64,000 bases of DNA, from the NCBI GenBank assembly GCA_015680685.1, contig MNCI01002112.1:62001-126000 (forward strand). The letters are read 5' to 3'. Within the stretch, counting starts at the first letter, position 1, and every line of letters starts with the position of its first letter. The stretch is from Gnetum montanum (lineage: Eukaryota; Plantae; Gnetophyta). The notes beneath the pieces were generated by a model. The model did not search any database, had not been told where the DNA came from, and saw nothing but the letters and a program-made list of their open reading frames with translations. Positions 1-54,504 of the stretch are shown here, one piece after another. The position numbers were made by a program, and so were the translations under genes.

Positions 1-1770
1 ATCCCTTAAGATGAGGGTAGAAAATAAAGACACGGAGGTCCTAGCCTCAGAGTCAAGAGGAAAGGAGCTTCTATCACTAAAGAAGGGGCTCTTATTGTTA
101 AGGAAAATCCTCCTAATGATGAGGAGGACATTTTTGGAGATGAACAGGAGTCTCCTATGGATGTGGTGCCTCAGCAAATAAGGAAGAAGCTCGCATCAAC
201 CTAGAAGGGACTTCCACTAGAGATCCCTTTGACAAACGCAATTCAACATTGGGGGAATAGATAAATGCTAAGGATGCTACCATAGTTTTGAGTCAAAAAG
301 GAGGGGAACTATAATTAGATGGTAGTGAGTTTGATAATATATTTGATGATGTGTTGATGGGCAATCCTCCCGTTATCACCCCGAGGGTTTACTGGGTAGG
401 AGCCCTCACACTGTCGTTTGCTTTACTCACAGCCTTATTATAGTTCACCTTGGTCATTACTGACACGTTTGATTGCATGAAAAATACCACTGTTAATGCT
501 ATAGGACTCCCTCTGATTTTCATGAAACCATGGGCTGAGACCCCTGACAAGCTCACATTCATGCAAGGGATCGTTGACGACATGATTGGCCATCTTAGAC
601 ATGTCAATCCTGAAGTGGGTAAGTAAAGTAGCTATGATAGGCTCTTTGAGTTTGCTATGATAGAAGATTTGAATTGCTAACATTGCTATGCTAGTGTGAC
701 TAATGCACTCTTTGTGTGGTCATAACCTCTCGCTCAAGTGGGACCTGACACGGGCATTGAAAGTCAATGCCATGCCTACATTCTTGCCCGAAGTGGCCAA
801 GGTGCCTCATCACATATACGATGAGGCTAGAAAATGTGCTTTGCACTCGGCACGCTCCTTGTGGGAGTGTAGGCATGCCAACGAGGATCTATGGAAATGG
901 GCCCAGAAAGTTGAGAAAGAGAAGGATGAATTGAGCACTGAAGTGGGAGACCTCAAATCCAAGAACGAGTTCCTCCTAGCTCATGATACCAATGATGGAA
1001 GTTGGCGCATGATTGTCATAGATTATGCTAGATACTGGATAGTCGTGTGGCAAAACAATGAGGCCACTTGGGAGATAATAGAATAGGGGATGTAGATGGA
1101 CTTGTTGGCTCAGAAGAACCAAGATTGAAAAGACTATAGCACTAGAGTTTACAAGTGGGAGTAGTCCCAGAAAAACAATAAACATATGTAGAAATTGGAA
1201 CGTGCCACCTACCGCAAACTATACAGGGATGCTTTTGGGAAGGTTTTTACTTATAAAGCATTCATAAATGTCATTGGCTCTTCTGATGCCTATAATAAGT
1301 TCATGGAGTAGGTAAAGGTCAATAAATATTCTGAATGGGAAGTGGATCTTCCCATAGGTGAGACTGTTACTGCCTCCTTTTCTCTAGGACCGCCGAGATG
1401 GATGGCCATAAAAAAGGAGAAAGCTACTACAGATGCTAAACCAAGCAATAGACATTGGGAAAACATCATGGAGGAGGAGGTCTGGCACTAACTCAAGCTT
1501 GGTTTGGATTGCATACCCTTCGAGGCGGACATGGGGCCATCTCGGGTTAGTCACTTTCTACTATAGAAAAGGCTTATGCTCTATTCTAGCTTTCATGTGT
1601 TGCTCTAGCTAACTACTTCAATTCTATAATGCAGATCCTTGATGAAGATGCAAGGCCTGTAGAGGGCAGAAATGAAGAGGTAGAAGAGGGAAATGCAGAG
1701 GAAGGTGAGGCAGAATGGAATGATGCAGGAGTAAATGATGTGGGTGAAGATGATGCGGGTGAATATAACC
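1..1770 (+). pseudogene. Last three exons of the element-borne antisense gene (copy A): coiled-coil and acidic C-terminal region
   Basis: ORF 703-1086 (LKWDLTR...LWKWAQKVEKEKDELSTEV) is homologous to ORFs 27823-28209 and 44237-44464. Introns at 619-~725 (GG|GTAAGT) and 1546-1634 (GG|GTTAGT...TGCAG|). Confidence 0.8.
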
Positions 1771-1939
1771 CATGACAGCATGAGATTTTTGAAATTTTGA
1801 ATTTTTGCAAAACTATTGCGAACATTTATCAATGGAAAAAAATTTAATGAAGTAAAATTTGAAAGAAAATTGGTCTTATCCTTGCTTATGCATTTTTTAG
1901 GTGATCATTTTTATGTTATGTTTTCGCTTTTGATGTTTT

Positions 1940-2159: not shown

Positions 2160-4531
2160 ACATGTTTAGTCAACTCTTTTGTTGGATAGTTAGTATCTAC
2201 AGAGATAGGTGCTTCATTCATAGAGGTTACTACCTCTGACCCTTGTTCCATATCTACGTTGTTGATAGCTTGTGCTGCTACCTCATCGCCATGGATTACC
2301 ACCTCCCTGCCTGCATAGGGTAGATGGATCTCCTGATGGATGGGTGAAGAGATAGTCCTAAGTTGTGGTAACCATGACCTTCCCAAGATCAGGTTAAACC
2401 TAGGCATCTCTTCAACTATGATGAACATTGCTTTTGTGAGGAACTGGCCCCCTGCCACGAAGTCAATATGGACCGTGCCTTTTACCACAACCCATGCCAT
2501 GGAAAGGGATGACATTTGTGGCAGATCCATCATCAATGTGTACCCTTCGAATCTTATGTTAGCCGACCCGAATTGTGATGAAAATAGGTGTTGTAGTCAC
2601 CTGACCCTTTTTAGGATCTTCCCTAATGGAATCATCATAGAAAGTTAGTTGGAATGGATTTGATTTTATAGGCGCAGAAGGAAGCATGACCAAATGGATC
2701 AGCTTCTCTTTTGCTGGCATGTTTCTCATCAACAAGAATTACTGTTAACATGCGGACCAAAGCCTCATGATGTGTAGTAGATGTCATGATTAGGTTGTAC
2801 AGGCTTAGCATAGTGTTTTTCTATTTTAGAGCTTACTTAACCTAGGTGAGAGTGCTCAAGAGGTGTTGGCCACTTTTCGGTTTACTGCCTTTCTCCTCTT
2901 CTATCCATCCCAGAAGATGAATTTCCTAAGGAGGGATAGTTTCAGGTCTGGGTTCAGACCCTTTTGGGTGAGAAGGTGAAGACTGTGCACACGTAGCAAC
3001 ATTATCCTTTGGTGAAGAGGGTGTAGATACAGGGGGTGAGGGAATAGGCTTGGAGGTACCTGGGATGGTACCTTCCCTTGACATCTCACCCATGAAGCGC
3101 ACTTCTCATTTCTTAGTACAAGAAGGTTGTGAAGTTGTCTTACATAGGGTGGGGGCTATTGAATGGGTTAGCCCCTAGATAACGAATGGAGCTAATGGTG
3201 TTAATGTGCAAGGTAGTGTGGTTTTGCTATTTATGGGTGGTGGAGGGGTAGATTCCTAGGGAATAGGTGGTGGAAGGGGAGATGTCCGGGGAGGGACTCT
3301 CAAGACAAATAGTTGCCACGAACTTTGATTACTTGTTGGTGGTGCTGGTGCACTATGTTGAGGCACACGGACTACCGACAGCTACTGGGGTAGTGTAGGA
3401 TTACTATCAATGTTGATGGTGTTGATAATGTAACCAGCATTGTTGGCGTTGAGAGGGTCAATGTAGACATGAAGGGATTGATTCTTAGGATATACTGGAT
3501 TGCTTTCATATAGCACCAGTTTTCCTTGATCGATCATCCTTTGGATGTCATCCTTCAATGCCATGCAGTAATCCATGTCATGACCACACTATTGGTGGTA
3601 GTCACAGAACTGCTCTAGCTTGAAACCCTTAGGAATTGGGGGCTGGTTAGGCAAAGCCAACAAGGGGTTCCTAAGGAGTTCACAGTACCGCTGATGCTTC
3701 CTGGCTCCCTCCTCTGACATCCGCTTATGTTGGATGTACCCCACTCCCAGTAATTTCTTCAGAAGATTTGAATGCTTAATAGAAAACAAGGTATACTTTA
3801 AGTGATCTTTATGGTCAAAGTTTGATTTAGGTGGTGCAGATGTCTCAGGTGTGGATGTGGGAGGTTGTGGTGCATTGCCCTATTTGGGCATGGGGTTAGT
3901 TGTATGTGCAGTCAATTTTTTGTTGTTCTTGTTACTGTTGGGTTTGGCTTCATTAACCACAACGGCCATTGTGGCTATTGCAGCCTTACCCTTTTTCTTG
4001 TCCTTCTTCGTGAAGGTGTTCTTATATGCCACATAGGCTGGGTCTTTGCTTACCTCAGCCGCATCTTTTATGCTCTTAGTCTAGGTGAAAACCTAACTAA
4101 GAGTACGTGGAGTGAGATAATACATCTTAGACTTAATAAATTTATTCACTACATCCTTAAAGATGGCCAACAAATGGGCCTCTACAATGGGCTCAGGGAT
4201 TTTGTTAAGGGTTGTGCTCCAGCATTAGATGAACTTCTGGACTAGTTCCAGTGGATCTTGTTTTACACTCATCTACTAATCTAGCATGACCTATAGTCTC
4301 AAGCTGTACTTGAGGCATCTCAAAAACTAGGTCAGAAGCTCCTCTGGGATTGATATGGAGGAGTGTGAAAGGTTGTGGTACTAATCAAGGCATTTTTTTA
4401 TCAAAGACATGGCAAAGACATGAATGATCATGTGCGGACATTGTTGTAGGAGAAGGGACTAAGAGCTAAATGTAACAAAATGTGTGTTTGGATCTCCCTC
4501 CCTATTATATTTCATGAAGTGGGGGAGTGAC
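2160..4531 (-). pseudogene. gag: Degenerate gag-protease (copy A, 5' truncated)
   Basis: LPHFMKYNREGDPN at ~4490-4527, FCDYHQ..GHDMDYC knuckle at ~3565-3610, RVHIDDGSATNV at ~2510-2546, NLILGRSWL. Confidence 0.88.
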
Positions 4532-6183
4532 TAAAACACCCCAAAAAATTTGAAGTCATTCTTGCTTCACCAGGTCTTGCAATTCGAGCAACACCACGAC
4601 AGTTCTTAAGGAGGAGAATGCTCTGAATGTAGGCTGGCTAGTTTGGAAAATTTTCTACTTTAGGTATAAAAAGGCTCTACAGATCATCCTGCCTATCCAC
4701 CTAAGTAGTTTTCCTAGTTGAAAGCCTACTTGGAAATGGTACCCAAAGTTGATAGCAGCGCTCAGGATGCACAAAATAGTTTAGCAAGTTTTCTAAGTCA
4801 CGGATTCTACTACGCTACGCTACACCCTGTTATGTAGTGTAAAAAGCTTCAGGAAATGATTGCGGAATGAAGTGCCATGCTACACTACACTACATAGCAT
4901 AGCGTAGCATGGCAACAGCTATATAACCAGTTTCCTCGATCAACTCTAGGTCCTTCAACAATGTCCCTTTCCATCAAAAAGTGGTGTACCATGTCTGTTG
5001 CTATGCTACACTGAGCTACATGGCACAGCGAGGCATAGAAATCCTGTAGAAGAGACAAAAGGTAGCTCATAGGGCAGGATTAGCAAGTTTGCAAGTCTTG
5101 TAGTATAGGAAGCAATGTTGCAAATTGACAAAGTTTTCATGAATAAGATCAGTCGCTACACTATGCTAAACTACATAGCGTAGCATAGCGTAGCAAGCAT
5201 ACAACACACATGTAGCAGAATGCATGATAAGGTGCTATGCTACGTCAAGCATGCTATGCTACAAAGCACAACCAGGAATGCAGGTGGTTGTGCGACATTA
5301 ATGAACTTCATCAAATTAGACCGTTGGCACACATTTCCAGAGGTTGATGATGCAATTATGATGTGGCAGGCTCATAGTTACGACATAGCAGGCTCACATT
5401 ATAATAGTCGTGCAAGTCCAAAGGTCATGCATAACACATGCAGCATAAGCAAGTCAATGTGGGCCTAAGGCACATGGTGTCCAAACTATCCCTTTCGCGT
5501 TTCCTTGATCCTATAAATACCCTGACAAGCAGCATTCAAAAGGAAGGAATTTTCTAAACAACCAGCATTCAAAAAGTTAGAAATTTTCTTGATTCTTCAA
5601 ATTTTCCTCTCTCTGGCACTCAATTTCTCCTCCCGGCACATTATAACATCAAGCATTATAAGCTTTCTATTTGACACTGCAAACAGTTAGCATTTATAGT
5701 GGGAATTTTGTTCTATCCCCCTTCTACCACCTTGGTAGAATCCCCACATTTTCAACACCCAAGTCTGCGCCCAAGTGCACAACCTATTTTTCTCTACACG
5801 TTCGGGTCAGTCTTGGGATCTCTGCACTTTGTCACGCTGTGCAACTGACTGTATCCTCCTTGACAAAGCAAACTTGTAGCTTTGGAGTAGTGCATTTTTC
5901 TAATTGCATTTTACTTTGTTTCCTGCTTATTGTTGCGTTTTGCACTATTTTTTATGCTTTATTTACTTTCAAGCATTACTTCGCATTTTTGTTCCCATTC
6001 CAAAAATATATGTTGAAAAAGGCTATATAGACACCGATTAAGTCCCTATCTGATCGACCAGACCATTTAAGGTGCCTCGTATCTACTTACACCAACACAG
6101 CCCTCCCGTGGGTATGGGGTTGAAACTGTTGTGCTTGCCAACCCCTTGGTTTTTTCCAGCCGCTAATGTTTTCGGTTGCTACA
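4532..6183 (+). repeat. 5' LTR of copy B (~1.65 kb)
   Basis: Starts TAAAACACC (family start TGAAACACC as at 20409, 57142 and 51225rc), has TATAAA at 5512 and ends GTTGCTACA, followed by the PBS. Confidence 0.85.
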
Positions 6184-6289: not shown

Positions 6290-6730
6290 CTGCAGTTGTT
6301 TGTGCTTTGTGCGATGCAGATCGGTCACCTCGACGATTCCTTGGGAGCCCTATAGAACACAAGGCCTCTAATCCTTGGCTAACTAGCTCATCTTACGATA
6401 GTCTTGCATGTGTTCTGTACCCCATCTAACATGGTACAAATCGGTCGCTTTGACGGTCCCTCAGGGATCCTACAAGACTCCAAGTCTTCTTGATTGCTAG
6501 TTAGCTTGCCCATCTTACGGTAGTCTTGCATGCGTTCTGTACCCCATCTTGCATGGTACAGTCTTCGACGGTCCCTCAGGGACCCTACAAGATGCAAAGC
6601 CTTCTTGATCGCTAGTTAGCTTGCCTATCTTATGGTAGTCTTGCATACGGTCTGTACCCCATCGCGCATGGTACAGACTAGTCACCTTGATAGTTCCTTA
6701 GAAATCTGGCAAGACATAAAGCCTTCTTTT
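6290..6730 (+). repeat. 5' UTR tandem repeat, ~120-bp unit, ~4 copies
   Basis: Recurring GGTCRCYTYGAYGRTYCC...TAGTCTTGCAT...CTGTACCCCATC at ~6322, 6442, 6561 and 6680. Confidence 0.8.
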
Positions 6731-6809: not shown

Positions 6810-9800
6810 ATGTCTTCTTCAAACATTGTCACTCACACCTTAAACGTTGAAGTTCCCATCATGGTTCGAGGCACTACTGGTGCCGAACAACTGTTGAACC
6901 AGATGTTGGAGGCACATCGATCTCTCAGAATCCAAAATCAAGGACCTGAGGGATTGGCCTAGCAACATGAGCATTATAGTTTCCTTTATGCAAAGGTGTA
7001 GGCAAATCTACCCTTGGATGTACATGAACTTGNCAAAGGTGTAGGCGAATCTACCCTTGGATGTACACGAACTCGAAGACAAAAGCAGCTTCAAGTTTGC
7101 TTACTGCAACGGGAAAGAGTTTGTTCCTATTCCCATCTTTTCCTTTCCTTTAACACAAGCAGACTAAAGGCTTCTAGACCAATTAATCTAGTTGGCTAGG
7201 CTTAGGGAGTAACATGACACTGCATCCAACCAAGACGATGCCTTTTAGGATGGACAGGAGCAACTCGATTCCCAATCAGATAAGGGAGGTCCAACCAACA
7301 TCGTTCCTATCCCTTCTACCCAGTCCTTTTCGGCCAAGTCATTGTCTGTCACTGCTCCCTTCATGATTATGCCTACACTTTTGCAACCCACAATTGCAAC
7401 AGCTATGGGTAGCCATGTCCATCCCATGGGGTTTCAACATCCTCTTTTGCCTATGTCGCGTGTGTCGTTTGTAGCCACTATCCCTTTGCAAGCTGTTCAA
7501 CAGTCCATTCCTATAGCACAACATCTACCAATCACGGCTACCCTACCACATGTTCCTATCGTGCCTATTTCACAATCACATGCAACTTCTACTTCCATTC
7601 CTACATTCACATTCGTTCCACTGACTGTGGTGGGCCTTGACCCATCCACATGGTGGGCCCCATTTTCTCCTTTGCCTACCCCGCAACTGACACAGATGTC
7701 TCACTACATCCATTCACAAGTCCACCAAGCCTCATAGATAGTACAACCAAACACAAGGCTATGGTCTACGCTATCGGTGACACAGGTAGTCCATTCGACA
7801 GCCCAACCTGTGGTTGCTGCCCTAACAACACCACCCGCCAGGTGGTGGACAACACAAATAGCACCGCTCATGGGGGTCATCTTAGCAGTACTACCGATGG
7901 GTCATGTCATCGCCCCAGCCATGCCATAGGTGGGAGCTACCTCTGTAGCTTCCCAACTATCTACAATGTCATCACGTCTAGGCCAAGCATTTTAGCTTAT
8001 CCAGACCCTCACTGAGGAAATAAAATGTCTCAAAGCTGCTAGGTCTGACATGATACAAGTCATGGACTTCTACCAAGATGATCCCATCAGCCCTACAATC
8101 CCTGCATTGACACTGCCCCTAGGGATGTCTCTCCCACACTTCATGAAGTATGATGGGGAGGAGGATCCTAATGCACATATTGTCACCTTCAGGTCTGAAT
8201 ATTTGCTATTGCAAAAATGGCTGCACACGATCATTTGAGTCTTCGCCATGTCTCTAGCTGGGAAAGCCCTAGATTCATACCTCACATTGCCATGTTCGTC
8301 CATTTCAACTTTGGAAGAACTCTTGATCCAGTTCGTGACACGCTTCAAGTACAACTTGAAGTTAGAGACCACACTATATCAATTAATGAGCATGAAGCAA
8401 GACCCGCTAGAACTGGTCCAAAATTTTATTTAACATTGGAGCACAACCCTTAACGAAATCCGCGACCCCATCGCGGAGGCCCAGTTGTTGGCCATCTTTA
8501 AGGGTGCAAAAACGACTTCATCAAGTCCAAACTGTACTACCTCACTCCTCGCTCTCTTAGTCAAGCTTTCACTTAGACTAAGACCATATAGGGCGTGACT
8601 GAGGTAAGCAAAAACTCAGCCTACGTTGCTTACAAAAACACCTTCACAAAGAAGGACAAGGGTAAGGCCCTAACAACCACAATGGCTACTGTGGCGACCA
8701 AGGCCATGTCCAAACCTAGCAATAGTGGTGGCAAGAATAACAAGAAATTGGCTAACCCCACGCCCAAACAGGGCCACATGCCGCAACCTGCGATACCTAC
8801 ACCCAAGACATCTGCACAAACGAAATCCAACTTTGAGTGCAAAGACCGGTTAAAGTACACCCTACTGACTCTAAAGCCTTCAGAGCTTCTGAAGTAACTA
8901 CTAGCAGCGAGATACATCTGACATAAGTAGATGTTGAACGAAGCAATCGTGAGACATCAACGTTATTGCGAGCTCCTTAGGAACCCCTCTTTGGACTTGC
9001 CCAATGAGCCTCCAGTTCCTAGGGCTTTCAGGATAGACAGGTTTTGTGACTACCACCAATAGTGTGGTCACAACACAGATTACTTTCTGGCATTATAGGA
9101 TGACATTCAAAGATTAATCGATCACAAGAAACCTATGTTGGATGAAAGCAACCTAGTATGCCCTAAAAACCAATCTATGTATGTCTACACAGACCCCCTT
9201 AATTCCAACAATGTCATTTACATCACCAACGCCATCGACATTGACAGTGATCCTAGACCACCCCAACAGCAATTTGTGGTCCATGTGCCTCAATGTAGTG
9301 CACTAGCACAACCAGTGGCTAGTCCAAGCTCGCAATAGCCATTCGTCCTGAAAGTCCTGCCATGGGCATCCACCTTAGCACCACCTATTTGAGGGGCCAT
9401 GTGGTCCAGTCCGCTAACACTGTTAAGCTCCTTTCATCATTAGGGGGTCGACTCCTTCAATAGCCCCCTCCCCGCATAAAATAGCTAAAAAACCTTCTTG
9501 TCCTAAAGGATGGGAAGAACGCTTCATAGATGGGACATTGAGAGGACGTACCACCCCTATTACTTCTAGGCCTACATCTCCATCCCTTGCATCTATACCT
9601 TCATCACCAAAGATGAACGTTGCCAAAACCACATAGTTTGTGCCGCCCTACCAAAAAGGGTCTGAACCTAGACCTAAAGTTGGCCCCCCTCAAGAGATTC
9701 ATCTTCTAGGACAAATCGAAGAGGAGGAAAGCTCTAAAGAAAAAAAATTCTACACTGAGCTTGTACGACCTAATCATGACATCTGTACCCCACTGCAAAG

Positions 9801-10678
9801 CTCTAATCCATATGTTGATAGTAGTTCTGGTCGACGAGAACATGCCGGTGGAAGAGGAAGAAATCCACTCGATCATGCTTTCCTCTATACCCGCAGAGCC
9901 CATGCCACCTCAATTCACTTTTAGTGAAAATGCTATTAGGGAAGATCCCAAAGTGGGTCAGGTAACTATGGTGTCTCTCTTCATCATAATTTGGGTCGGC
10001 CAACACTGAATTTGAAGGGTACACATTGATGATGGGGCTGCAAAAAAAGTCATCCCCTTCCCTATTGTGGACAAGTTGGGATTGGTCGACCAGATCAAAC
10101 CCACAACGATGTCATTTTTGAGGTCCTTCAACAGGGCACACGTCCTGGTGAAGGGCATAGTTCATATATACTTCATAGCAGGGGACCAGCTCCCCATAGG
10201 CATAACATTCATCGTGGTTGAGGAAATGCCCAAGTTTAACCTGATCTTGGGAAGATCATGGTTAGTGCAACTTAGGGTTGTCTCCTTGCCTATACACCAG
10301 GAAATCCACTTACCACATGTAGGAAGGGAGGTGGTGATCCATGGTGATGAAGTAGTAATGCAAGCAATCAGTAACGTAGACATGGAGTAGGGCTCAGAGG
10401 TCACAACCTCCAAGAATGAAGCTCTTGGTCATGCATACATTAACCATCCAATGGAGGAGTCAGCCCAGCAAGACAACCTCCAAATCAAAAATGCATGGGT
10501 TGAGTTGCCCTTCCAAGAGGGGGACAATGATGTGAACGAGGACCCCGACGAAACACCTTGGCCTTATATTCTGATCAACCCACAGTGGGTCAAGAGGTAC
10601 CAATGCATAGCATCGCAACCCTACTTCTTCCTGCCCAATTGCCAGCCCATACGCATTCATCGCTTTTTGCTTTGCTAA
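6810..10678 (+). pseudogene. gag: Degenerate gag-protease (copy B)
   Basis: ATG at 6810, Pro/Thr-rich N-terminus, LPHFMKYDGEEDPNAH, SLAGKALD, FCDYHQ..GH knuckle at ~9042, RVHIDDGAA at ~10016, FNLILGRSWL. Confidence 0.9.
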
Positions 10679-10704
10679 CATGCCATTTTTCTGGCATGCT
10701 ATGC

Positions 10705-10890
10705 TATGGCCCGAAATGGCCTAAAACTAGCAATGGCTAGAAACGGCATAAAACTAGCAATGGCCCAAAATGGCCTAAAACTAGAAATGGCTCGAAATGG
10801 CCTAAAAATAGCATTGTTGTTTTTTTCTTTATTAACATACAATTCTTTTGGCATGATACGCAAAGGCCCGAAATGGCCTAAAACTAAGAT
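10705..10890 (+). repeat. 27-bp minisatellite ATGGCCCGAAATGGCCTAAAACTAG (copy B)
   Basis: Units at 10706, 10733, 10760 and 10787, plus one at ~10865. Confidence 0.9.
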
Positions 10891-11049
10891 ATGAAATCAT
10901 GAAAACTTTACACGATACATAAGTTAACGCAAAATCAGTTTCTTTTATGAAGTTTTTCATTTTTATTCAAATCCTTTGTCTATTGAAAATGTTTGCAAAA
11001 ATTGTACAAAATTTCAAAATTTCAAAAAAAGAGAAGAGAAACTCCCATG

Positions 11050-14000
11050 TGGTCATGGGTTATCTTTGTTTGCATCTTTCTCGCTGCTCACCTCTTTGTC
11101 ATCAGCTTTTGCATCGCCTTCCCCTACGTCACCCTCTACCAGTTCTTCATTCCCTTCCTCTACGAGCCTTGCACCCTCATTTGGATCCTACATCATGGGA
11201 ATGAAGTAGTCAGCTAGGGCAACAAATGCAAGTTACAATAGAGCATAAGCACCAATATAGTAAAGTGACTAACTTGAGAAGGGCCTACGTTGATCTCAAA
11301 GGGTATCCAGTCTAAATTGAGCTTGAGGCGATGCCAAACCTCATCTGTTATGATGTCCATCCAACTCCTATTGCTAGGTTCAACATCTGCAGCAGCGGCT
11401 CTCTCCCTTTCCACGATCGTCCATTTTGGAGGTCTTGGGGATAAGGAGATGGTTGCAGTCTCTCCTATGGGAAGGTTCACTTTCAAGTCAAGAGATTTCT
11501 TAACCTTTACCTACTCTTTGAATTTGGTGTAGGCCTTAGAAGCATTGATGGCATTCATGAATGGTTCATACGTGAAGGCCTCCACAGCATAGCCTTTGTA
11601 TAGTTTTCGATGGGTATCATTCTCCAGCTTGTACATGTGTTTGTGGTTTCTCTGGGTTTGCCCCCATTCAAAAACCTTGGCACTAAAATATTTCATGTCT
11701 TAACACTTCTAGACTAGCAAGTCCATCTGCATTTGCTGTTCAATTATCTTGGGAGTGGATTCAATGTTCTAACGCATGATAGTCCAAAACCTAGCGTAGT
11801 CTTCTACAGCCATGCCCCAGTCCTCATTATTAGGATCACAGGTTACGAGGAACTCGATCCTCAACCTAAGATTCTCCACCTCAGTGACCAGGTCAACCTC
11901 TCTTTGCTTAGCCCTTTGGACTTGTTTTCACAGGTCCTGGTTGATGCACTTATACTCCCATAGGGAGTGTGCTCAGTGCAAGACACACTTGTAAGTCTCA
12001 TTGAACATGCGACGAGGAACCGTGGTCATGTTAGGTGAGAGTGTACGCACGATGCCAACTATCATATGTTGTGCTGGGTCCCATTTGAGCCAAGAGGCTA
12101 CCTTGACACAAAGAGCGTAGCAATTGCGTTAGCATAGAAAAATCAATAAACTCAAAATTTTTAGCATAACAACATAAGGACACTTAAAATCGCTACTTAC
12201 CCACATCAGGGTCCACCTACTGAAGATGTTTTATCATGTCATCGAAAAGTCCCTACATAAACGTAAACTTGTTAGAGATCTCAGCCCATGACTCCATGCG
12301 AATCGGAGGGGGTCCTGTAGCATCAACAGTAGCACCTATCACATGAGTAAGCATATCAGCAATGGCCATAATGGACTATGATAAGGCAGACATATCACCG
12401 AACTCACCAACGTTCGACTACGGTCTTTCTTCTTGCTGATGCAAGACAATGGTGGTAGCCTTGGTGGAAGGCCCTGCTAAGTCTACATGAGCCCCTTCCT
12501 CATGCGCTAGTGCCTTTCCTTTCAAGAGACCAACGCCTTTTTTATTCAAGGGAGATGCCTCTTCGTTAGTAGGAGGAGGCTCCCAATGACAAGAGCTCAT
12601 TTATTCTTGAATAGGACCTCTGTGTCTTTATTCATCACCCTCGTCCTAGGGGCTGACACTTCTTCATCACCTTCTTCTTCTTCTTCTTCTTCTTCCTCTG
12701 CTAGCAAAGAAGCATGTTTGCATCGGTCCAAAATAATTTAGGTCAAAGTAGATGCTACGCTATGCTACACCACCTAGTGCATCATAGCGTAGTAAACAAT
12801 AACAAAATAAGCATTACACAAAATCATTTACCAATGGGGGATTGCATCCTCTATAGCTTAAGCCATAGTCTTCATCCCTCCTCTTCCTCCATGCAAAGGG
12901 TTTCCCTAGCTAGGGGAGGCCTCTTCCTTTGCAACTCCTGGGGCATAGTCTTGACTATGAGATGTTTCCCTCATGTCACGGTACCGACTATAGCAAGGGG
13001 CGTCTCTTCTATGATGTCCTAGCCATGAATTTTTTGAGCCACCAGATCCTTGGTCGTTATAGAAAACGACTCTGCAATTATTTCTAGGGGATCTTGGGCT
13101 TGTGAGGTCTGGAGGATTTGGTGAATCCATGGCCTGGAAATCTCGTTGCAATTTTGCATGACCTAGAATCCATCCTCTTGAACTACCAGAAACTCTATGA
13201 AGTGCTTCAAATAGCCTATGTAGAAGGCATAGTGTATGTTGAAGCAGGACTCCATTTTTTGATGGAGTCCCAAAATCTCAACCTGCAAGAATTAACATAG
13301 GAAACTAGCCTAGTTGTAATGGGCCCCTTCTTCCATAACCTCCTACATTATCTAGGCCTACTCAAGCCCCAGGACCTTCCCTTGGGTAAGCAGTTGGGGG
13401 AATGTCTAAGCACGGAAGACAGGGTAAATCTCCATGATGGGTCTATCCCTTAGCTTATCCATGGGGAGCCCTTCTCACTCCTTAACAAGCCCCAACCACT
13501 CATGGATATCCTTCTTCTGAAGGGTCAAATCCTTCTTGCCCTTCAACCCTATGAGGACACCATTGGTAGGAACACTGAACAGGCCTGTAAACAGCTAGTC
13601 ATTGATTTCAATGACCACCTACATGTCCCGTATGTGCACGCGGAAGTGGCCCACCATTTTAGAGAAGGAGTTGACTAGGGAAAGCATCTTAGTGGTAGGA
13701 ACACTCATGATTGGGGCCATGAACAGATCCATAAGCCCCACATTTTGGACGTTCTGGACTAGGGAGTTTGAGGCCTCATGGTTTAGCCACCGCTGGCTCA
13801 CTTCTACTTCACTGTATTTGAAGTAGATGTTTTCCCCTGCGTCTCATGGATACTACTACCACCCCCTAGGGCTTCTTCACCACTGCAATAGTTTTCACAA
13901 AACATGCTTAGCATAACGATGCAAGAAATACAAGGATTGCAAAAAAAAACTTAAGCATGCAACACTTACTGTTTGACCCACTGGGCCTATCCAGTAACGA

Positions 14001-15422
14001 GAATAGCAAGAGTTCAACCAAAACTTTTTCAACCATGATCGGCTTGAAGGGTTCTATCCACTCCTCATCCAGCCAACCCTTCTCCTTGCACTGATTGTAG
14101 GAAACATGAAACATGCTTGGGTAGGTATGGTATTCTCCCCCACACTGACCGATCACACCCACCCGCAAGTTCTTAGCAGAAGAGAACTCTCGTAGGGCTA
14201 GCTATGCTATAGCCAACAGAACTGATCGATCATGAACCCCATCATCATTGATAAAGAACCTGGTAATAAACACATACTATTAGCATTCGGCCAATATGGC
14301 TAGCATTGCACAATGCAGCAGGGCAAGGCTACAAGACTCACCTGCCAGCACAATAGACAGTCCCCTGTGGGTTCTGAAAGCACACCACCATGTAACATGC
14401 AAGGAAAAATGTGTTGTAATGGTGGTAGCAGCTATATTCAGACATGTCCCAGATCCAGGCTAAATGCCTTAACGCTACTAAGCATTGGCTAGATCCCTCT
14501 CCCTACTTGCTCATGATTTTCTCATCAGTAAAAAATCTCAGAATTCCCTGACTTGCCCCAGGCAACATGGCTTCTGTTATGTTGGATTCTTCCTCCTCTT
14601 CTAGGGAAGACCAAATGATCACACTGAAGTCATCGAGAAGAAATTATAGAAAGCCTTGTACCCCTTTCCTAAACCAGATCCCTTGCTCTTCCATACATAT
14701 CTGGGGAGGAGGAGCGTTGGCCGTAGGTCTGCTCACATGGCACAAGACCCCTCTAATTTCCAAAACAATCATCCTGGGCCTCAACCCCGCCCTACACAAC
14801 ATAATCAACGAATGTTAGCATCATACCTAAGGGCAATACATGTGCAATGTAGCAGCACATAGCAGTTCATGCATATAGCATAGCATAGCCCTCTGCCTGC
14901 ACATAGCGTAGTAAGGGTGTGAAAGCCTAGCGTAGCAAGAACATGCAAAAAGCCTAGCGTGGCAACAAAATAATTGAGGAGATGCCCTAAAAAAACATGT
15001 ATCACATAGCTGCATCACACACGGCCTAACCCTCCTAAGGGTTTTACGTTACGACATGCAAAGGTCAAGCAACTTCAACTACCCCAACCTCAGTGGTTAT
15101 AGCGACTGCGACGGTGGTAGTTTCAGCAGCCTTCCATGCAACCCCAACGTAATGTTTATGCATCTTCCATGACCAAAACGGTGACATCTTCGATGTAAAT
15201 GACAAAATGACATGACCACAAAAAACATAGGTAGCTAAGAATGGAAGCAAAATAAGAGCAAAGAACAATAGAAAGCACAAAATGAAAAAGCAGAGGAAGC
15301 ATAGTAACCTACTGGGTCAACGGTGTGCTCTTCCATGCCACAATGCATGCTTGTGGCACACACCCTAGGGTCTTCTTCACCTCCTCAACCTTTGCAAGTG
15401 CCAGATCAATCTTAGGAGCCAT
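11050..15422 (-). pseudogene. Antisense ~7-exon cargo gene of copy B: NIF/FCP1-like pseudophosphatase + PMD-like domain + coiled coil + acidic tail
   Basis: Candidate start MAPKIDLA at 15422. GT-AG introns at 15312-14827 (tentative), 14341-14260, 13969-13883, 12831-12698, 12200-12098 and 11273-11188. The exon 2/3 splice is in frame (CAG-R-FFIND). Homologous exons occur in copies A, C, D and E. Confidence 0.8.
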
Positions 15423-16325
15423 TGTCCTGCTTGTAGATTCACACTCTTCACTGTAAAAACTCACCTCGCTAGTTGTTAACACAATTGCTTCGTGCTCCAA
15501 AATCGCCTTATGCTCCGATGTGGGCTTTGTGATCTTACGGTGAGAATGGAAAAATTGCTAGGATTTAACCCCTATTTATTTATGGTCATAATGATAAGAG
15601 GGGGAAAACTTGCCACTCTCTCTCTCCGATTAATGTAGAGCCCACCGTACAACATAGCATGCTCGCCACGACATTGTAGCACTGTTAGCATTAAAGCCTT
15701 GATAGGCTTCAAGCCAACTGTTTGCTTTCCCAAAAACAAAAAAATATATTTTTTTCGTTACAAGTCTGAAAAGACCTTAAACTAGTAATCTTGGCAATTG
15801 CAGCACGACTGGTCTGAAAAGACCCTAAACTAGCAGTTTTCAACGTGTTACATTCCCAGTATGCAATGACATTAAACTAACAACACCACATACTTACATG
15901 GGTGATTTTTGCATCTTCTTCCATATTGGTAGTGTTGTAATTTCTAGTAGTTTCATGTTTTCATGACAGCAGTTCGTATTTTCGCATTGATGGTTTGGCA
16001 CTCCTCATACCTACAGTTTCCTATTTCGCATACTATCATTTTGCATGTTACAATTTGGCAGTCTGAAAATGACACTAAACTAGTAGCTTGGCATTTTCAT
16101 ATCAAAAATCTCATAGCTTCACACTTTGCATCAGCAATTTTACACCTTTAGCAGTTCTACGCTCTTGTGTCTTAGTGGTCCGCCATGACCCTAAACTAGA
16201 AAACTTTCAATCTTTACATCATCACACTTCACAAGTTGCATTTCGTCGCTGCTTTGCAAACTTTCATCACACACAATCTCTATCAAAAGAAGCATCTTAA
16301 CCAGGATTTTATTTTATGTTGGCAG

Positions 16326-19300
16326 GTCGAGCAAGAGATTGAAATCCATCGCGACCTTTCCATGCCTTTAACGTTAGCAAGGCCATAGGGTAGGCATGCG
16401 AGATAGTTGAACCCCAACATGATCGACTAGGGATTGACCATAACTAACACTATAGCAGCCTTAGAAGCATCCCTAGACTGGCCCAAGCATCTAGCCCAAG
16501 CCCTAGACTTAGAGGCCAAGGACCCTCTCGTCGAGATGCCTATGACCATGTTAAAGGGGGAGGTGAAAACGTTAAGACTCAGCTCCCTCCTAGACACAAA
16601 AATGCACAAAAGCGTAGCCAAGATTCTGCAAGACAACATCGATGTCTTCACATGGTCATACAATGACATGATGGGTTTGGATCTACAGCTGATTCAGCAC
16701 AACATCATCCTAGACCCATACAAGAAGGTAGTCAAGTAGAAGGCTTACAAAGTTAAGCAAGAAATCACACTAGCCATGAGGGATGAAATCACCAAGCTAT
16801 ACCAAGAAACTTTCATTTGCGTGGTTGACTATTCAAAGTGGGTGTCCAACGTCATTGTGGTTTCGAGGAAAACAGTAGGAATACAGATCTGTATAGACTT
16901 CTGGGACTTGAACAAAGCAATGATCAAGGATAACTTCCCACTTCTAAGAATCGATCAGCTCATTCATACCATGTCTGGACATGCCCTACTATCCTTCATG
17001 GATGGTTTCTCCGGATACAACCAAATCTGCATTAACCCATAGAATCAACTGTCAAAAACCTTCATGATCCCATGGGGGATCTTCAGCTACACGATCATGC
17101 CCTTCGGGCTCAAGAATGTTGGAGCAACCTACTAGCGAGCCATGAATTACATTTTCAGTGACTACATCCTAGGAACATTAAACGACTATGTGTATGATAT
17201 AGCGGTTAAGTCCAAGGAGGTAGCTAATCACCCATGCGATCTAGGGGTAGTTCTCAAATGTTTCCAAATGCACAACTTACATCTCAATCCTAAGAAGTGA
17301 ATTTTCAAGGTAAAAACTGGACACATGTTAGGGTTCATGGTATCAGAGGCTAGAATATGGGTGAACCCTGACAAAGTCAAGGCTATTTTCAACTTGGTGC
17401 CTCCCACGAACCTTAAGGAGCTACGTGGTTTGCAAGGTAGAGTGCAATTCATTTGAAGGTTCATAGCAAGGTTGACCAACAAGTTACATCCCATGCAACA
17501 TCTTCTAAAGAAAGGGGTTAACTTTGAATGAAAAAACTAGTGTCAACAAGCCTTCGATGACCTAAAGAAGGAACTCTCACACCTCTCGACTATGCATCCG
17601 CCACAAAGGAATAAACCCTTCTTTTTCTACCTTGCCACCTCCGACACATCTATAGCAGCATAGCTATGTCAGAAGCGAGACAACGGTTCTGAGATACCAG
17701 TGTATTATCTGAGCCATGCATTAATAGCGTACAAGGAAAAAATACAACGAAGTGGAGAGGAATTACCTTGCCTTAGTGTTCACACTAAAAAAGTGGAGGC
17801 ATTACCTATTTCGTGATACAACCAACATCATTTGCAAAAGCAATATACTTCGGGCTATCACTAACAACCTATAGGAAAGTAGCAGGATAGCCCGATGGAA
17901 GGTAATAACCATGGAGTTCAATTTATGCTATGTAAGTCAATCGTCAACAAAGGTTCAACCATAGAGACCTAGCTCACAGCCTCAGCCATTGATGACCAGG
18001 CAACCATAGACCCCGAATTCCTGAACAAATATGTTAGTAATGTCAACATCATCCCATCACATTTCAAAGCCACTTTACACTTCGAAGACGCCTCAACCAT
18101 GTGAGGGGGGTAGCACCGTTGTTGTCATAACATTCCACTCTAGGGAAATGCATCCATTCGATTATTGTTTTACATTCCCTTGCACCAACAACGTGGCAGA
18201 ATACGAAGGGCTACTCAGAGGCCTCTTAACTACCCGAGCATCATGCATACAACACCTGGTGATCCAGGGAGATTCATAACTAATCGTGAATCAAATCACC
18301 GAGGTCTACGCTTGCAAGGCTATGCACCTGCAACCCTATTGTGACCTAGCAAACATCCTGCTTAAGCAATTTGTAGCCACAAATGCCTTAGCTACCCTTG
18401 CATTAAACATTTCATCACATTCCTTGGAAAACTTGCCAACATCGATTATAGAATGCATAGAGCCTATCACTCAGGTAGAACATGTGGCCTTTGTCAGTGC
18501 TGCGGATACCCAGGAGTGGTATGCCAACATCAAAACTTATCTACAACATGGCAAATCCCTAAGTGGATTGACATCTGCCCAGAGAGATGCAATCTGTAAG
18601 TGTGCCCAGCAATATGTGCTCATGGTAAATGATGCCCTATGTCGGCGCCCCTATTGTTGGCATGTGTGGGTGGCGAGCAAGCACAAAAGGTAGTTAATGA
18701 AGTGCATGAGGGTCTGTGCACTGGACACATAGCACCGAGGGCTATGGCTGCAAAAATCAACACCTAGGGTACTACTGGCCCCACATGGAGTGTGACTGCC
18801 TATCAAAAGTCAAGATGTGCAACACATGTCAGAGATACACATATCTCATACACGTAGCACCTATGGTCCTATACCCAACATAAATCATGTGGCCCTTCCA
18901 ACAATGGGGACTAGACCTCATAGGGCTTATCATGCCTATATCCTCCACAGGGCATAGTTTCATTATCACCTCCATTGAGTACTTTACCAAGTGGGTGGAA
19001 GCTATCCCCCTGAGGAAGACGACGTCTCCGCAAATCTTCCATTTCATCCTAGAAAACATCAGAATAAGATTTGGACATCCAATAACTATTGTGACCGAAA
19101 ATGGGCCACAGTTCAGTAGTACGAAAACTTGAACCTTCTAGAAAAATCTAGGCATTAAGCAATTATTCTCCTCCCTGTATTATCCATCAGCGAATGGGTA
19201 GGCAGAGGCTACAAATAAGTCCATCATCAACTTGCTGAAGCGGATGCTTAACAATAGTAAGAGATGGTCGCACAAGTAGATCCTATATGTCCTATGGGCT

Positions 19301-19747
19301 TATCAAATGATGTGTAGGACCGCAACAAGTAAAACCCCTTATAGCCTTAGCTATGGATTTGAAGCTATGTTGCCTCTTAAGTTGCAGGTACCATCACTCT
19401 AGATGATCTTGTCCAACATCGTGAGCGAAGCCTAGAACAATGAGTCGCGGATCATCAACCTCGATTCAATAGAGGAGGAGCATGCGTAGATGCTGAGACA
19501 CATCAAGCACTACCAAAGCAAGTAGCAATAGAAGAACCATGAAGAACTACATCAACGACCAGTGCAGAAGGGAGACCTTGTTCTCAAGGCTGTCCGTGAG
19601 CACGTGAGCAAATTATCGGCTAGCTAGGAAGGTCCTTACTTGATCACTAAATCCTTTGGGAATAGAGCCTTTAAGCTGGTGGACATGGATGGCAACAAGT
19701 TCACCAACCCCATGAATCACTCATACCTTAAGTTTTCCTACATCTGA
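16326..19747 (+). pseudogene. pol: Degenerate pol: RT-RNase H-additional (archaeal-type) RNase H-integrase (copy B)
   Basis: RT: DVFTWSY, KDNFPL, LSFMDGFSGYNQI, MPFGLKNVGAT, YVYD (mutated YVDD). aRH: CTNNVAEYEGL...IQGDS. INT: WPFQQWGLDLIG, FTKWVEA, ENGPQF, EGPY. Stop at 19745-19747; no chromodomain seen. Confidence 0.93.
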
Positions 19748-19779
19748 AGCACAACGGCAGCCACCACCATCCACTACGA

Positions 19780-20020
19780 CAATAAATTGGCAATCACACC
19801 AAGCAGCGTCCGCAATGACGATAAACTAGCGGCATGGAGTAGTGTCCACGATGATGATAAACTATTGGCATTGGGCACCATATGCCATGATGTAAAACTA
19901 GCATGCCCTATCTGCTACGATGATAAACTGGCACATACGATTTGTTAGGATCTTAAACCAGCACAACGGTCCACTAGGACCTTAAACTAGCACACGGTTT
20001 ACCAAGACCTTAAACTGGGT
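19780..20020 (+). repeat. 3' UTR short tandem repeats (~29-38 bp) with a TAAACT(A/G)G core
   Basis: About 8 recurrences of (GA/CT)TAAACTRGCA between 19782 and 20019. Confidence 0.75.
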
Positions 20021-27129: not shown

Positions 27130-28620
27130 AGTCCACCCTCATGCTCTCATAAGCTATCCCCATTTGCATCGCCTTCACCATTTATCTCTACTTCATCCAC
27201 TTGCGCATTGTCTACTCCTATATTACCCCCTATCGACACCTCATTCCTTCCCTCCATGGGCTTCACATCCTCATTAAGAGCCTGTGTCCCAAAAGATAAA
27301 GTAGTTAGTAGGGACAAAAAATGCGATAAATGACAGCTGTATCAAAGCATCAAAGCGACTAACCTAAGGGGAGCCTACATCAGTCACAAGAGGTATCTGG
27401 TCTAGACCAAGCCTGAGATGATGCTCAATCTCCTCCATCAAAATATTCATCCAAGGGCTATCATTAGGTTCAGCATTCACAGTGACAACTTTTTCCCTTT
27501 CCAAAGTTGTGCATTTTAGAGGTTCCCAGGAAAGAGAGGTGGTTGCGGTCTCTCCTATAGGAAGGGTCACCCCCAAGTTTGGAGATTCCGTGACCTTCAA
27601 CTGCTCTTTAAATTTGGCATAAGACTTATAAGCGCCGATGGCCTTCACGAACACCTCATACGAGAATGCCTCCATAGTAGCATCTCTATACAACCTTTGA
27701 TGGGTTTCGTTTTCTAGCTTGTAGGTATATTTGTGGTCCCTCTGGGTGTTCCCCCATTCGAAGATATGGATGCTGATGTCCTTCATATCTTGGAACTTCT
27801 GGGCCAGCAAATCCATCTGCATCTACTGTTTGACTATTTCGTAGGAGGATTCTACATTCCGATGAATGAAAGTTAAAAACCCAGGATAGTTGGGCATAGC
27901 CCTTTGCAACTCAGCAGGGTCAGGGTTGCGGTTTATGAGGAAATCAATCATTGACCTAAGGTCCTCCACCTCAGCGACCAGTTCTGCCTCTCTCTGTTCG
28001 CTCCTATGGGCCCATTTCCACAATTCCTCATTGGTACATGTACATTCCCATAGAGAGTGCACCGAGTGCAAGATGCATTTGTAAACCTCGTCAAATATAT
28101 GATGAGATACTTCGGTCATGTTAGACAAGAGTGTGGGCACCGCGCCAATATCCATAGGTCGAGCCAGGTCCCACTTGAGCTGAGAGGCTGTAGAAATTAT
28201 AATAATCATGTTAACATGACATAAATTAATACATTCAAGAGTTTTAGCATAGCAGCATAGGGGCTATCAACACTCCTACTTACCCACATGAGGATCCACC
28301 TGCTGAAGGTGTTTGATCATGTCATCAACAAGCCCCTGAAAAAATGTAAACTTGTCAGGAAATTCAGCCCATGACTTCGTCCGAGGCAGAGGAGGTCCTA
28401 AGACATCAGTAGTAGCACCTATTACATGATTAAGCATGTCAGAAATGGCTGAAATGGACTACGGTAGGGTACATCCAAAGCCTAAACTCACCAACATCTT
28501 GTTGTTGTCTTGTTTCTTGCCAATGCAAGACAATCGTGGTAGGTTCGGTAGAAGGCCTGGCCAAGTCCATAAGAACTCCTACCTCAAGTGCTGGTGCTTT
28601 TCCTTTCAAGAGAGCAGCGT
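27130..28620 (-). pseudogene. 3' exons of the antisense gene (copy C)
   Basis: ORFs 27364-27822 and 27823-28209. Introns at 28283-28188 (GG|GTAAGT...TTCTACAG|) and 27363-27282 (AG|GTTAGT...CACAG|). Confidence 0.82.
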
Positions 28621-29212
28621 ATTTTTTATTTTGGTTTATGGTTTAGGGTTCATATACACCTTATATATATGTTCCCATAGTAATCTAAGTTCATTTTCCT
28701 CATTTTCTACTAAGGGAGTTGTTCAAATTTTCTCTCGTAACTTAGAGCTTTGCACACTCATCTTCCACTTGCAATATCTAGCTCTATACTACTTTGATTT
28801 CCATACCATTTAAACCCACCTAAACCTAGAGTGTTCATGTTAGTTTTTTTTTCTTTGGGGGGGGGGGGGGGGGGGGTGCTTTCATGTGAAACTTGTACCA
28901 AACTACTAGAATTTTCTATCACCCAAAGGGTATTATAAGAGTAAGAGTGTTAAAAACTTCAAGTGTTATCATGGAAAATCAATTGTATTAGGGATCATAA
29001 CCATTACTATAAGCCATACATATGGAAAAAGGAACCAATTGCGAATGGTTGTGAGGAGATAGACATTTTTTATGGATTTTTCTTGAAAATTTTTCTAGCT
29101 CTATGATCATATGCATTAAGAAATTAATGAACTAAGGTAATGAGTAAGGTATAAATTAATTAATGATAACAACTACAACCTTAGTAACAACTTGATCTTT
29201 TCTTGATTACAG

Positions 29213-33899: not shown

Positions 33900-36080
33900 T
33901 ATTCCACTTAAATGAAAATTTATTATGAACATTCTTCCTATTAATTTTCCATAATAAGACCAAGTCTCCCTCTCTAAATGGATTTCATATTTCTTAATGA
34001 TCAAATCATCTCTTCATTATTACAACATTTTTCAAGAGCTTATCCTAAGCTTCATCAACGTTTGCCTCTCTTTCTAATAGCAAAGCTATTAATCCATATT
34101 TCTTATTTGATACTGGACTATAATTCTCCATGAACTCTATTTTTGATGACACAATTTTATTCATTATTCAATAATTAAACCCATAAAATAGGCTAAATGG
34201 TGAAGTAGTTATCAATTTCTTAATCTTGATCCTATCTATCTATAAAGCTCCTTGCAGCAATTCCTACTAGTTCTGTAAACTCTTATCCATGGAGTGCTTA
34301 ATATATGAAATTCAATTTTTGTTAGTAAATTTAGCTAATCCATTTTCTTAAGGGTAATAATTTGAAGAGGAATAAAGTAAAATTTATTTTTTTAATCCTA
34401 TCTTATAAATTTAGTTGAATGAAAAGTTGTACCATTATTAGTGACTAATGATTTTGGAATTTCAAACTAATTTATAATGTAATGCTCTATAAATTTAATT
34501 ACATCATTGAATGTAATTTTTTTCAAAGATTTAGCTTCTAGCCATTTAGTAAAATAATCAGTAGTCATCAAGATGAACCTATGTCCTACTTTAGATGGAG
34601 TAATAACTCCTATAAAATCGAATCCCCATCTCCAAAAGGGATTATCTATTACTATTAGCTTTAATGGAGCACTTGTTTTCTTTATTTTTGGTCCATGAAT
34701 TTGAACTTTATAGTAAGTATTTTTTAATATAAGTCCTTATATATTGAAGGCTAGTAAAATCTATGTCCCAAGATATGTTGCGTTGTATCTCTTCAAGATT
34801 CATAATATAAGCCTTTATGGTTATGGAATTGGCTTAGAATTTCTTTAATTCTTTGATTGGATATGGATTCTAATAATATTCCTCTAAATTCATTTTAGTA
34901 TAAGATTCTTTAATTAAGAATGTATCTATTTTTCTTATGGATAAATTTTTTTTCCTTTACTTAAATTTTTTGGAATTTCTTGCTTAGTTAGAAACTTTAG
35001 TGTATCATCATACTACTTTTTTATTTTAGGAGGAGCTAATATTTCATGTTTGGATTTTTTTTTTCATAATCTTAAACAATCCAATATTTTTAACTATTTT
35101 ACAAATTTCCATTTTGAACTTAAATTACTATAGCTTAATTATCTAATTAGCTCTCTTGAGACCAATTTCATTCTGAGATAAAAATTGTCTCACAACTAGC
35201 TCTATGGTCATAATATGAATAGTCATATCTTCTAGATAATAATTGCAATGAGTTAGAGTTTTTATTATAGAAAATACTTTCTTCTCAAGTTCAAAATACC
35301 TATTCTTACCTCTTTTTAATTGATAACCAAAAATTCAATCAAGTTTTCTTCCTTTACATCTCTTTGTGTTAATATTACAACCAAATATTTTGTATATGCA
35401 AAGACAAAAAACCAAAAGTCTTATTTTAATATGGGTATCATATTTTCTAAATTAATTTTAAGGCTTCTACCAATTACTTAGTTTTTTGGACTTTAACATC
35501 CTTCTTCAACATTTGTAAGAGTGGTTTTGTTATTTTTTTGAATCCTTGAATAAATCTTTTCATGACATTCATCTTTCCAAATAATCATCTTAATGACTTA
35601 TTATTTGTAGGATGTTCCATTCTTTAAATAGCTTGTATTCTTGATTGATCTATGGATATTCCTTTTTGAAAAATTATGTGTCGAAGTAATTTTCTGATTT
35701 TCCTTCAAAAATACATTTATGAGGATTTAAAGAAATGTTAAAATCCTTACATCTATTAATATTTGTGGTAAGTGAATAATATGATTTTGTGCATGCTTTC
35801 AATAAATTGTAATATCATCCAAATATATAGCTATTGATTTTCCAATAAGCCTTGTGAATGCACTATCCATGGCTCATCAAAATGTACCTCTTATATTTGA
35901 TAGGTTAAAAGGCATTCTATTTTATGCAAAGGTTCCCCATTTTGTGATAAATGATGGCTTATATCTATCATTCTTATCTACTATTATCTAATTATAGCTT
36001 GAGAAACCATCTAAAAATGAGTACAATTGACAACTTGAGACTTTTATAAGGATCTCATTGATCTTTAGGAGTGAGTATCT
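33900..36080 (-). pseudogene. pol: Highly decayed gypsy pol fragment (RT-RH-INT, no aRH evident)
   Basis: Reverse strand: YSFLDGFSSYN ~36000-36025, FITKWGTF, IYLDDI ~35812-35829, PFWRWGFDFIG...TDYFTKW ~34540-34640. Interrupted at 36080 by a copia LTR. Confidence 0.8.
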
Positions 36081-54200: not shown

Positions 54201-54504
54201 CCATGGCCCACTAAGGCCTTAAATTGGAATCATAGTCCACCAAGACTAAACTAACATCATGGTCTACTAAGGCCTAAAACTAGTGAAATTGTGGCCCTTA
54301 TTGACCATTTGTAGCCATATGTCTCATACTTCCCTTTATTTGGCCCTTGTTGCACTTTGTTTACTTGTTTTTTACTCTATTTATAATATTGGATGACACT
54401 ATTTGGATTAGAATAACATATATTTGCATAATTTTATAGCATTTTAGCATTGTTTATTTATTTTTGTCCAAGTTCCACTTAATATGCTTCTAGTTAACAT
54501 GTAG

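Follow-up and report, generated by a model that had tools for sequence, protein, structure and literature searches.

Plant retrotransposons of the long terminal repeat (LTR) type are described as generally intronless (PMC12786077). The Tat clade is defined by an additional RNase H (PMC6317226), an arrangement that occurs across most land-plant groups (PMC10508981). Antisense extra open reading frames (ORFs) are common in Tat elements; the reports place them upstream of gag or in the stretch from pol to the 3′ LTR, and give them a TRP28 domain or a plant mobile domain (PMD) (PMC7264820, PMC11963269, PMC4408406); a 2020 review called their origin unknown and asked for a search for antisense and spliced transcripts (PMC7264820). 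In Ogre elements the spacer between protease and reverse transcriptase (RT) is a partly spliced intron with a mean length of 274 bp (PMC6317226). Here we analysed 64,000 nt of DNA from Gnetum montanum (assembly GCA_015680685.1, contig MNCI01002112.1, positions 62,001–126,000 of the forward strand; hereafter the window, in whose coordinates all positions are given) and describe a Tat-type Ty3/gypsy family that probably carries, between protease and RT, an antisense gene of eight exons whose exons show past purifying selection and whose introns are likely to survive reverse transcription.

The closest described systems each share part of this arrangement. As in Ogre, itself a member of the Tat clade, a non-coding spacer parts gag–protease from the RT, RNase H, additional RNase H and integrase block, the additional RNase H coming after RNase H and before integrase (PMC6317226, PMC4408406); the Ogre spacer, however, averages 274 bp and is a demonstrated intron, whereas the present one measures 5.7 kb, houses an antisense gene and is a candidate intron, and the extra ORFs of Ogre are situated 5′ of gag or 3′ of pol and often code for a PMD, for which no match was found here. 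Retand, Grande and RIRE2 (TRP28) and TatIII/Tat V (PMD, coiled coil) carry a conserved antisense protein-coding gene with adjoining tandem repeats, a likely internal promoter (shown for gene23 of Grande) and no known function (PMC7264820, PMC11963269, PMC4408406). The present gene is likewise antisense to gag–pol and conserved across copies, but the Retand-type ORFs occupy the interval from pol to the 3′ LTR and have been described as ORFs, the word 'intron' being absent from the available text of two papers by Vicient, whereas this gene has seven introns, an NIF-like domain and no match to TRP28 or PMD. Spliced antisense coding genes within a genome copied from sense RNA are known from hbz of human T-cell leukaemia virus (HTLV)-1 and aph of HTLV-2, -3 and -4, which encode accessory regulators; these are animal retroviruses, however, and the genes are driven from the 3′ LTR, overlap the 3′ genes and encode an unrelated protein (PMC10186651). 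Conserved antisense introns also occur in the multi-exon antisense transcripts of Arabidopsis Copia elements, although these are non-coding, start in the 3′ LTR and overlap gag–pol (bioRxiv 10.1101/2024.04.02.587720). Finally, in the Ogre-related Tat element Gypsy_Pa_2799 of an orchid, an enzyme domain of host-like type became fixed as an extra gene, an AlkB-type demethylase ORF; the domain there is active and its cofactor residues are retained, whereas the phosphatase-like domain described here lacks such residues and belongs to a multi-exon gene inside the spacer (PMC9289625). In the published literature searched, key subscription papers not being covered, we found no gene between protease and RT that is antisense, contains introns or is of NIF/FCP1 type. 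The text supplements of PMC6317226 (17,418 characters) contain no mention of NIF, FCP1, HAD or phosphatase, although the table of extra-ORF domains may lie outside them, and the available text of PMC13468544 and PMC12477816 added nothing on spliced antisense genes in Tat elements. Tat elements are thus known to carry antisense extra ORFs, and HTLV-1 spliced antisense genes; the position, the number of introns and the NIF-like domain were not found in print.

Self-comparison of the window resolved five related LTR retrotransposon copies, A to E, approximately 60–75% identical, nested and decayed; all comparisons made here are among these five copies of one 64-kb window. In element B, a decayed gag and protease region (6810–10596, plus strand) is followed on the same strand at 16326–19748 by RT, RNase H, additional RNase H and integrase, which matched the Pfam families RVT_1, RT_RNaseH, RVT_3 and rve in that order. 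Gag was recognised by Pfam (Retrotrans_gag, weakly in B at E 0.003, and at 1.8e-7 in C) and protease by eye, without a Pfam match; with protease so placed, B has the order gag, protease, RT, RNase H, integrase of the Tat clade. The additional RNase H of B (RVT_3, E 4.1e-7) lies between RT_RNaseH and rve, and because this domain defines the Tat clade the family was assigned to Tat-type Ty3/gypsy. The antisense gene sits between the end of protease (approximately 10600) and the start of the RT frame (approximately 16330), and not after pol. All copies in the window are dead relics, each with stops.

The gene predicted on the minus strand of B has eight exons and seven introns, with 3,285 nt of coding sequence (approximately 1,095 codons). 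Exon 1 (15313–15422, 36 codons) is the least certain; it has no stop from the ATG at 15422, its phase 2 fits exon 2, and its counterpart in D (48761–48643) has the same phase. Intron 1 (14792–15312, 521 nt) runs from GT to AG with a branch-like motif 27 nt from its end and a boundary that aligns with D. Exon 2 (14342–14791) probably encodes an NIF/FCP1-like HAD domain (weak match to Pfam PF03031), with 31% amino acid identity between B and D and a ratio of non-synonymous to synonymous substitution (dN/dS) of 0.36. It is separated by intron 2 (14260–14341, 82 nt, phase 2; 46657–46571 in D, same phase) from exon 3 (13970–14259), which has one stop in the conserved frame against eight and four in the others. 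Intron 3 (13883–13969, 87 nt; 46291–46169 in D) precedes exon 4 (12832–13882), which encodes a conserved domain of approximately 300 amino acids (31% identity between B and D, dN/dS 0.29), and intron 4 (12698–12831, 134 nt, GT–AG; donor at 45141 in D) precedes exon 5 (12408–12697), which is acidic, of low complexity and frameshifted in B, with a GAA run at 12659–12699, and was placed by alignment with A and C. Intron 5 (12336–12407, 72 nt, phase 1) runs from GTGAGT to AG. Exon 6 (12201–12335) is 135 nt long and gap-free in A, B and C (dN/dS 0.33–0.36), without stops in A and C, and is followed by intron 6 (12098–12200, 103 nt, phase 1; 619–725 in A, 28283–28188 in C, from 44606 in D). Exon 7 (11274–12097; 824 nt, 274 amino acids) is the best conserved, with 824 nt in each of B, C and D, no gap between B and C and dN/dS of 0.31–0.38 against B. 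Intron 7 (11188–11273, 86 nt, phase 0) leads to exon 8 (11053–11187), an acidic tail that closes at a terminal stop common to A, B and C, the only in-frame stop there. Phases fit at six of the seven junctions in B, although for junction 4, because of the frameshift in exon 5, the reading had to be selected by eye. The exception is junction 3, where the frame is broken in B and read through in D. A TATA-like A-rich box on the minus strand (15570–15590), approximately 160 nt upstream of the ATG and with a similar box upstream of the D ATG, is a candidate internal antisense promoter.

A preliminary description of this DNA had placed six introns on the minus strand of B, all of which do begin with GT and end with AG; those numbered 2, 3, 4, 6 and 7 here stand as given. 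That description mentioned neither the NIF-like exon nor the siting of the gene between protease and RT, which is unusual. The count rose to seven with the overlooked intron 5, whose donor hexamer is identical in A (325), B and C (28491). The tentative first intron kept its donor at 15312 but not its acceptor: position 14827 was rejected as it adds two stops and breaks the phase, and 14792 is preferred because it aligns with the D boundary and keeps the frame (phase 2 from the ATG). The last intron recurs with GTTAGT donors in A (1546–1634), C (27282–27363) and E (63824–63914) just as had been reported, and its D donor is GT at 43672. Recurrence of the next-to-last intron in A, C and D was also borne out, although the D donor, said to be mutated, proved intact in register at 44606, and the acceptor in A is non-canonical.

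Donors were GT in all 21 intron copies across the five elements, and acceptors were AG in 17 of the 20 placed; one acceptor (D intron 7) was not placed, and for D intron 4 one of several candidate AGs was selected by eye. The number of motifs is no proof by itself, with donor-like motifs not enriched on the minus strand (14 versus 14 per strand). Conservation was more informative. Among the five GT[AGT]AG sites of B in a four-copy alignment, exactly three, all of them donors, are identical hexamers in A and C while the other two are not, and GT dinucleotides overall were kept at 13 of 75 sites in this alignment. It is therefore the conservation of donors, not the number of motifs, that sets the splice sites beyond chance. 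The introns are also rich in T (39%, against 24% in exons). Intron interiors had been thought to diverge more than the exons; this holds for insertions and deletions and for distant pairs, but not for the nucleotide identity of close copies, which was 0.66 in introns versus 0.68 in exons for B–C and 0.68 versus 0.67 for B–A. Gaps per kb in introns versus exons were 30 versus 0 (B–C, with exons gap-free over 1,094 columns), 21 versus 5.5 (B–A) and 54 versus 4.6 (C–A), and for B–D the intron identity was at the shuffled level (0.58 versus 0.57). Introns tolerate large changes in length, whereas exons 6 and 7 keep theirs: intron 5 measures 72 nt in B, 73 nt in C, 159 nt in A (325–483, 87 nt more than in B) and 89 nt in D (a T-rich GT–AG interval, 44825–44737), and intron 1 spans 1,541 nt in D (48642–47102) compared with 521 nt in B.

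In the long exons, identity by codon position in the minus-strand gene frame followed the order 2 > 1 > 3, and stops were fewest in this frame (12 versus 50, 68 and 25 for B–C). The antisense exons gave dN/dS values of 0.29–0.40, compared with 0.16–0.19 for gag and RT, and the pooled ratio of non-synonymous to synonymous differences per site (pN/pS) was 0.48 (0.40–0.58) for B–C, 0.47 for B–A and 0.64 for B–D. Protein similarity between B and D was strong for exons 2, 3, 4 and 7 (z-scores of 48, 12, 49 and 42 respectively). Whether gag, protease or exon 7 is compared, the outlier is D, and the gene therefore travelled with the element. Of the proposal that this gene was transcribed, spliced and under selection, the last part is upheld by codon positions, dN/dS, stops, indels and phases, while six RNA runs gave no splice joint for the other two (below). 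The data support a multi-exon antisense gene under purifying selection, and its position, its exon–intron pattern, the selection and the co-divergence with gag and protease are all observed in these copies.

Exon 2 matched the Pfam NIF profile (positions 3–91 of 160) with E 5.2e-4 in the gene frame only, there being no match in the other five frames of this exon in B. A word-based search among longer proteins found no relatives of exon 2, and there was no sequence match in PDB. The aspartates that we take to form the catalytic motifs of HAD phosphatases are absent from exon 2 in both B and D, which are both decayed. With these aspartates missing from both copies, exon 2 reads as a pseudophosphatase-like domain that is likely to be catalytically dead, and its likeness to the NIF/FCP1-like HAD phosphatases is limited to a weak match. 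Exons 4 and 7 had no relatives in Pfam, NCBIfam or word-based homologue searches. For exon 4, a profile search of 1.84 billion proteins returned a single match, to a four-fold repeat protein with 29% identity over 45 residues, which was rejected as an artefact, and there was no PDB relative; a likeness of this exon to PMD-type proteins, seen by eye, is presumptive on our part. Exon 7 had no match in metagenome and viral scans. None of the eight NCBIfam searches gave a match, nothing below E 0.4 emerged from PDB sequence searches, and Pfam found neither TRP28 (PF04195) in the antisense gene nor PMD (PF10536) in any exon scanned. The two AlphaFold models had pLDDT values of 27.9 and 31.7 (the latter for the NIF-like model), too low for use.

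The spacer between protease and RT (10597–16325, plus strand, 5.7 kb) separates gag–protease and RT–RNase H–integrase of B into two ORFs, as in Ogre, and is bounded by conserved candidate splice sites in the sense direction. The candidate donor after protease occupies one alignment column, with GT in B (10597), D and E and GC in C; candidate acceptors before the RT frame are pyrimidine-rich AGs in B (16325) and D (54504), within three columns of each other. The whole spacer may thus be a sense intron as in Ogre, enclosing the antisense gene, a reading to which we give somewhat less than an even chance. A 27-bp tandem repeat (10706–10886, plus strand) lies beside the 3′ end of the gene. Related short motifs occur at 15776–16192, 19822–19983 and 54202–54283, hence on both flanks of the gene and after integrase, always on the sense strand; this motif may mark how the gene cassette entered the spacer.

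Several observations weigh against the arrangement proposed here. Six raw-read RNA runs carrying the same species label, of which 2–26% each was read and aligned at 80% likeness, yielded no splice joint in either the sense or the antisense direction, and internal positions of introns 1, 4 and 7 had read coverage. A search of sequencing runs for this stretch listed no RNA run that contains it, and nine DNA entries with all or part of it. Over 11156–15435, runs X10 and X11 were strongly one-directional (approximately 8:1 in X10), with the same direction over gag (approximately 5:1) and pol (approximately 3:1), and as this bias in X10 is the same over gag, pol and gene no separate antisense transcript was evident. 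In one alignment round, 750 of the 906 reads were under 90% alike and two were at 99% or more, with a depth of a few reads; the reads therefore derive from other copies and power is low. We regard this result as weak evidence against present-day splicing in these samples, which says little about the past. With respect to coding, pN/pS in the plus-strand mirror frame overlaps that of the gene (0.53–0.72), third positions being shared, so that the call of the strand rests on stops, the codon-position pattern, the splice signals and the NIF match. Similarity between B and D is weak for exon 6 (z 2.7) and not significant for exon 1 (z 1.0). The NIF score of B (20.2 bits) is under the Pfam gathering cut-off of 21.8, and the D copy had no Pfam NIF match; in favour of the match, the true gag of B is itself below its own cut-off (18.1 versus 24.1 bits), which calibrates the decay. 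By hand count the sense donor of B is in phase 2, whereas both acceptors are in phase 0 with RT, a mismatch that tells against an in-frame sense fusion in B. In D, the link from the gene to the RT at 54700 is inferred across approximately 4 kb of inserted DNA.

We considered whether the splice signals could be chance motifs in decayed coding or non-coding DNA. The equal number of donor-like motifs on the two strands and the lack of a spliced read would agree with this, but in copies that are only about 50% alike the GT–AG intervals are where the frame changes, T becomes frequent, gaps occur and codon periodicity is lost, and chance is very hard to credit. A different account holds that B is chimeric, a non-autonomous gag–protease element with an ordinary 3′ antisense gene having been followed by an unrelated pol fragment, so that the position of the gene is accidental. 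Retand 3′ regions typically contain repeats and antisense ORFs (PMC11963269), the tandem repeats that adjoin the gene are similar to the ones downstream of integrase, and gene and RT are uninterrupted in B only, A, C and E being cut and the 3′ LTR of B unclear. However, gene and RT in B have no LTR between them, and the RT that follows the gene in D is 45–56% identical to that of B, its upstream leader aligns with that of B, and the repeat and a candidate AG acceptor are present there too; the divergence of RT between B and D (0.66) is moreover in line with that of gag and protease (0.55–0.58). We consider a chimera improbable.

It is also conceivable that a host or DNA-transposon gene landed in the ancestral spacer as genomic DNA, introns included, and has been a neutral passenger since. 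The seven introns look like normal plant introns and the NIF domain is of host-like type, which does suggest capture at the DNA level or from an antisense read-through; selection on the gene is weaker than on gag and RT, and landing as DNA may well be its origin. What tells against neutrality is that selection is seen between copies whose synonymous sites are saturated (proportion of synonymous differences 0.53–0.72) and that the divergence of the gene tracks that of gag and protease; the gene was therefore kept through many rounds of transposition. Terminal inverted repeats of a DNA transposon were looked for around the gene in B and rejected, none flanking it, and no cellular relative of exon 4 or 7 was found. 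A neutral passenger is accordingly quite improbable in our estimation, and an antisense gene maintained by the element between protease and RT is the explanation that we favour.

Splicing is strand-specific, and introns on the opposite strand therefore stay in the packaged sense RNA. In this family such RNA would present the seven introns backwards, and they would survive reverse transcription; the same reverse arrangement of an intron is used in retrotransposition reporters (PMC12786077). The antisense gene would be transcribed from its own internal promoter near 15580 and its transcript spliced by the host, giving a protein of approximately 1,095 residues predicted to comprise a short N-terminus, the NIF/FCP1-like domain that lacks the catalytic aspartates, two domains assigned to no known family and acidic linkers. 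If the spacer is indeed a sense intron, spliced sense RNA would supply Gag–Pol and unspliced sense RNA would be packaged with the nested gene. As to function, we can offer the guess, itself doubtful, that the protein is a non-catalytic accessory factor which binds a phosphorylated host target, such as the tail of RNA polymerase II or a chromatin protein, and so aids transcription of the element or its escape from silencing. A bolder and unlikely version is that an Ogre-type sense intron was turned into a 5.7-kb cargo bay, a locus spliced on both strands, in which a captured FCP1-type pseudophosphatase fused to new domains steers RNA polymerase II or silencing.

The remaining copies of the antisense gene are incomplete or distant. 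Copy A (1–1775, plus strand, element A being reversed) and copy C (27147–28630, minus strand) hold exons 5–8, the element of C being cut at approximately 28630; copy E (63760–64000, minus strand) has the end of exon 7, intron 7 and exon 8 and runs off the window. Copy D (43500–48761, minus strand) is the most distant, with seven donors matching those of B. That D lacked a pol was entertained and rejected, since RT follows at 54700. The ratio of observed to expected CpG in the D region (39500–48800) is 0.08–0.09, compared with 0.28–0.44 in A, B, C and E, and within the D spacer 49050–53900 is inserted DNA containing an inverted LTR-like piece of the same family (49842–51055) and many short inverted repeats.

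Element B begins at 4530–4531 inside the gag of the reversed element A, one member of the family being nested in another. Its 5′ LTR-like region (4531–6040, plus strand, the right end approximate) opens with a motif common to those at 20408 and 57143. The region from 20408 onward is 68% identical to it, with the same pattern of transitions and transversions as B–C internal DNA and no preceding purine tract, and is likely to be the 5′ LTR of C; a truncated B 5′ LTR with a B 3′ LTR starting at 20102 was dropped after this comparison. After a purine tract at approximately 20090 come 300 nt without a match elsewhere in the window. Just past the point where the LTR is presumed to end, the conserved stretch (6020–6060) is by eye unlike a standard tRNA primer site, and the 5′ leader of B contains a 115-bp tandem repeat (6389–6676), with similar repeats in C. 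RT remnants of other lineages, 27–34% identical to the RT of B, occur at 56113–57140 (cut by element E) and 35504–36077, and a metagenome scan with RT returned one unrelated locus, 34% identical. Long C/G homopolymers (28860–28875, 53240–53263) and one N at 7033 may be assembly noise, and lie outside the antisense gene.

Taken together, the retained introns and the domain of host-like type suggest that this family captured a gene in unspliced form. The origin of the gene by capture becomes testable through comparison of its intron positions with those of host NIF genes, and in large plant genomes a gene model that has introns can be the cargo of a retrotransposon.

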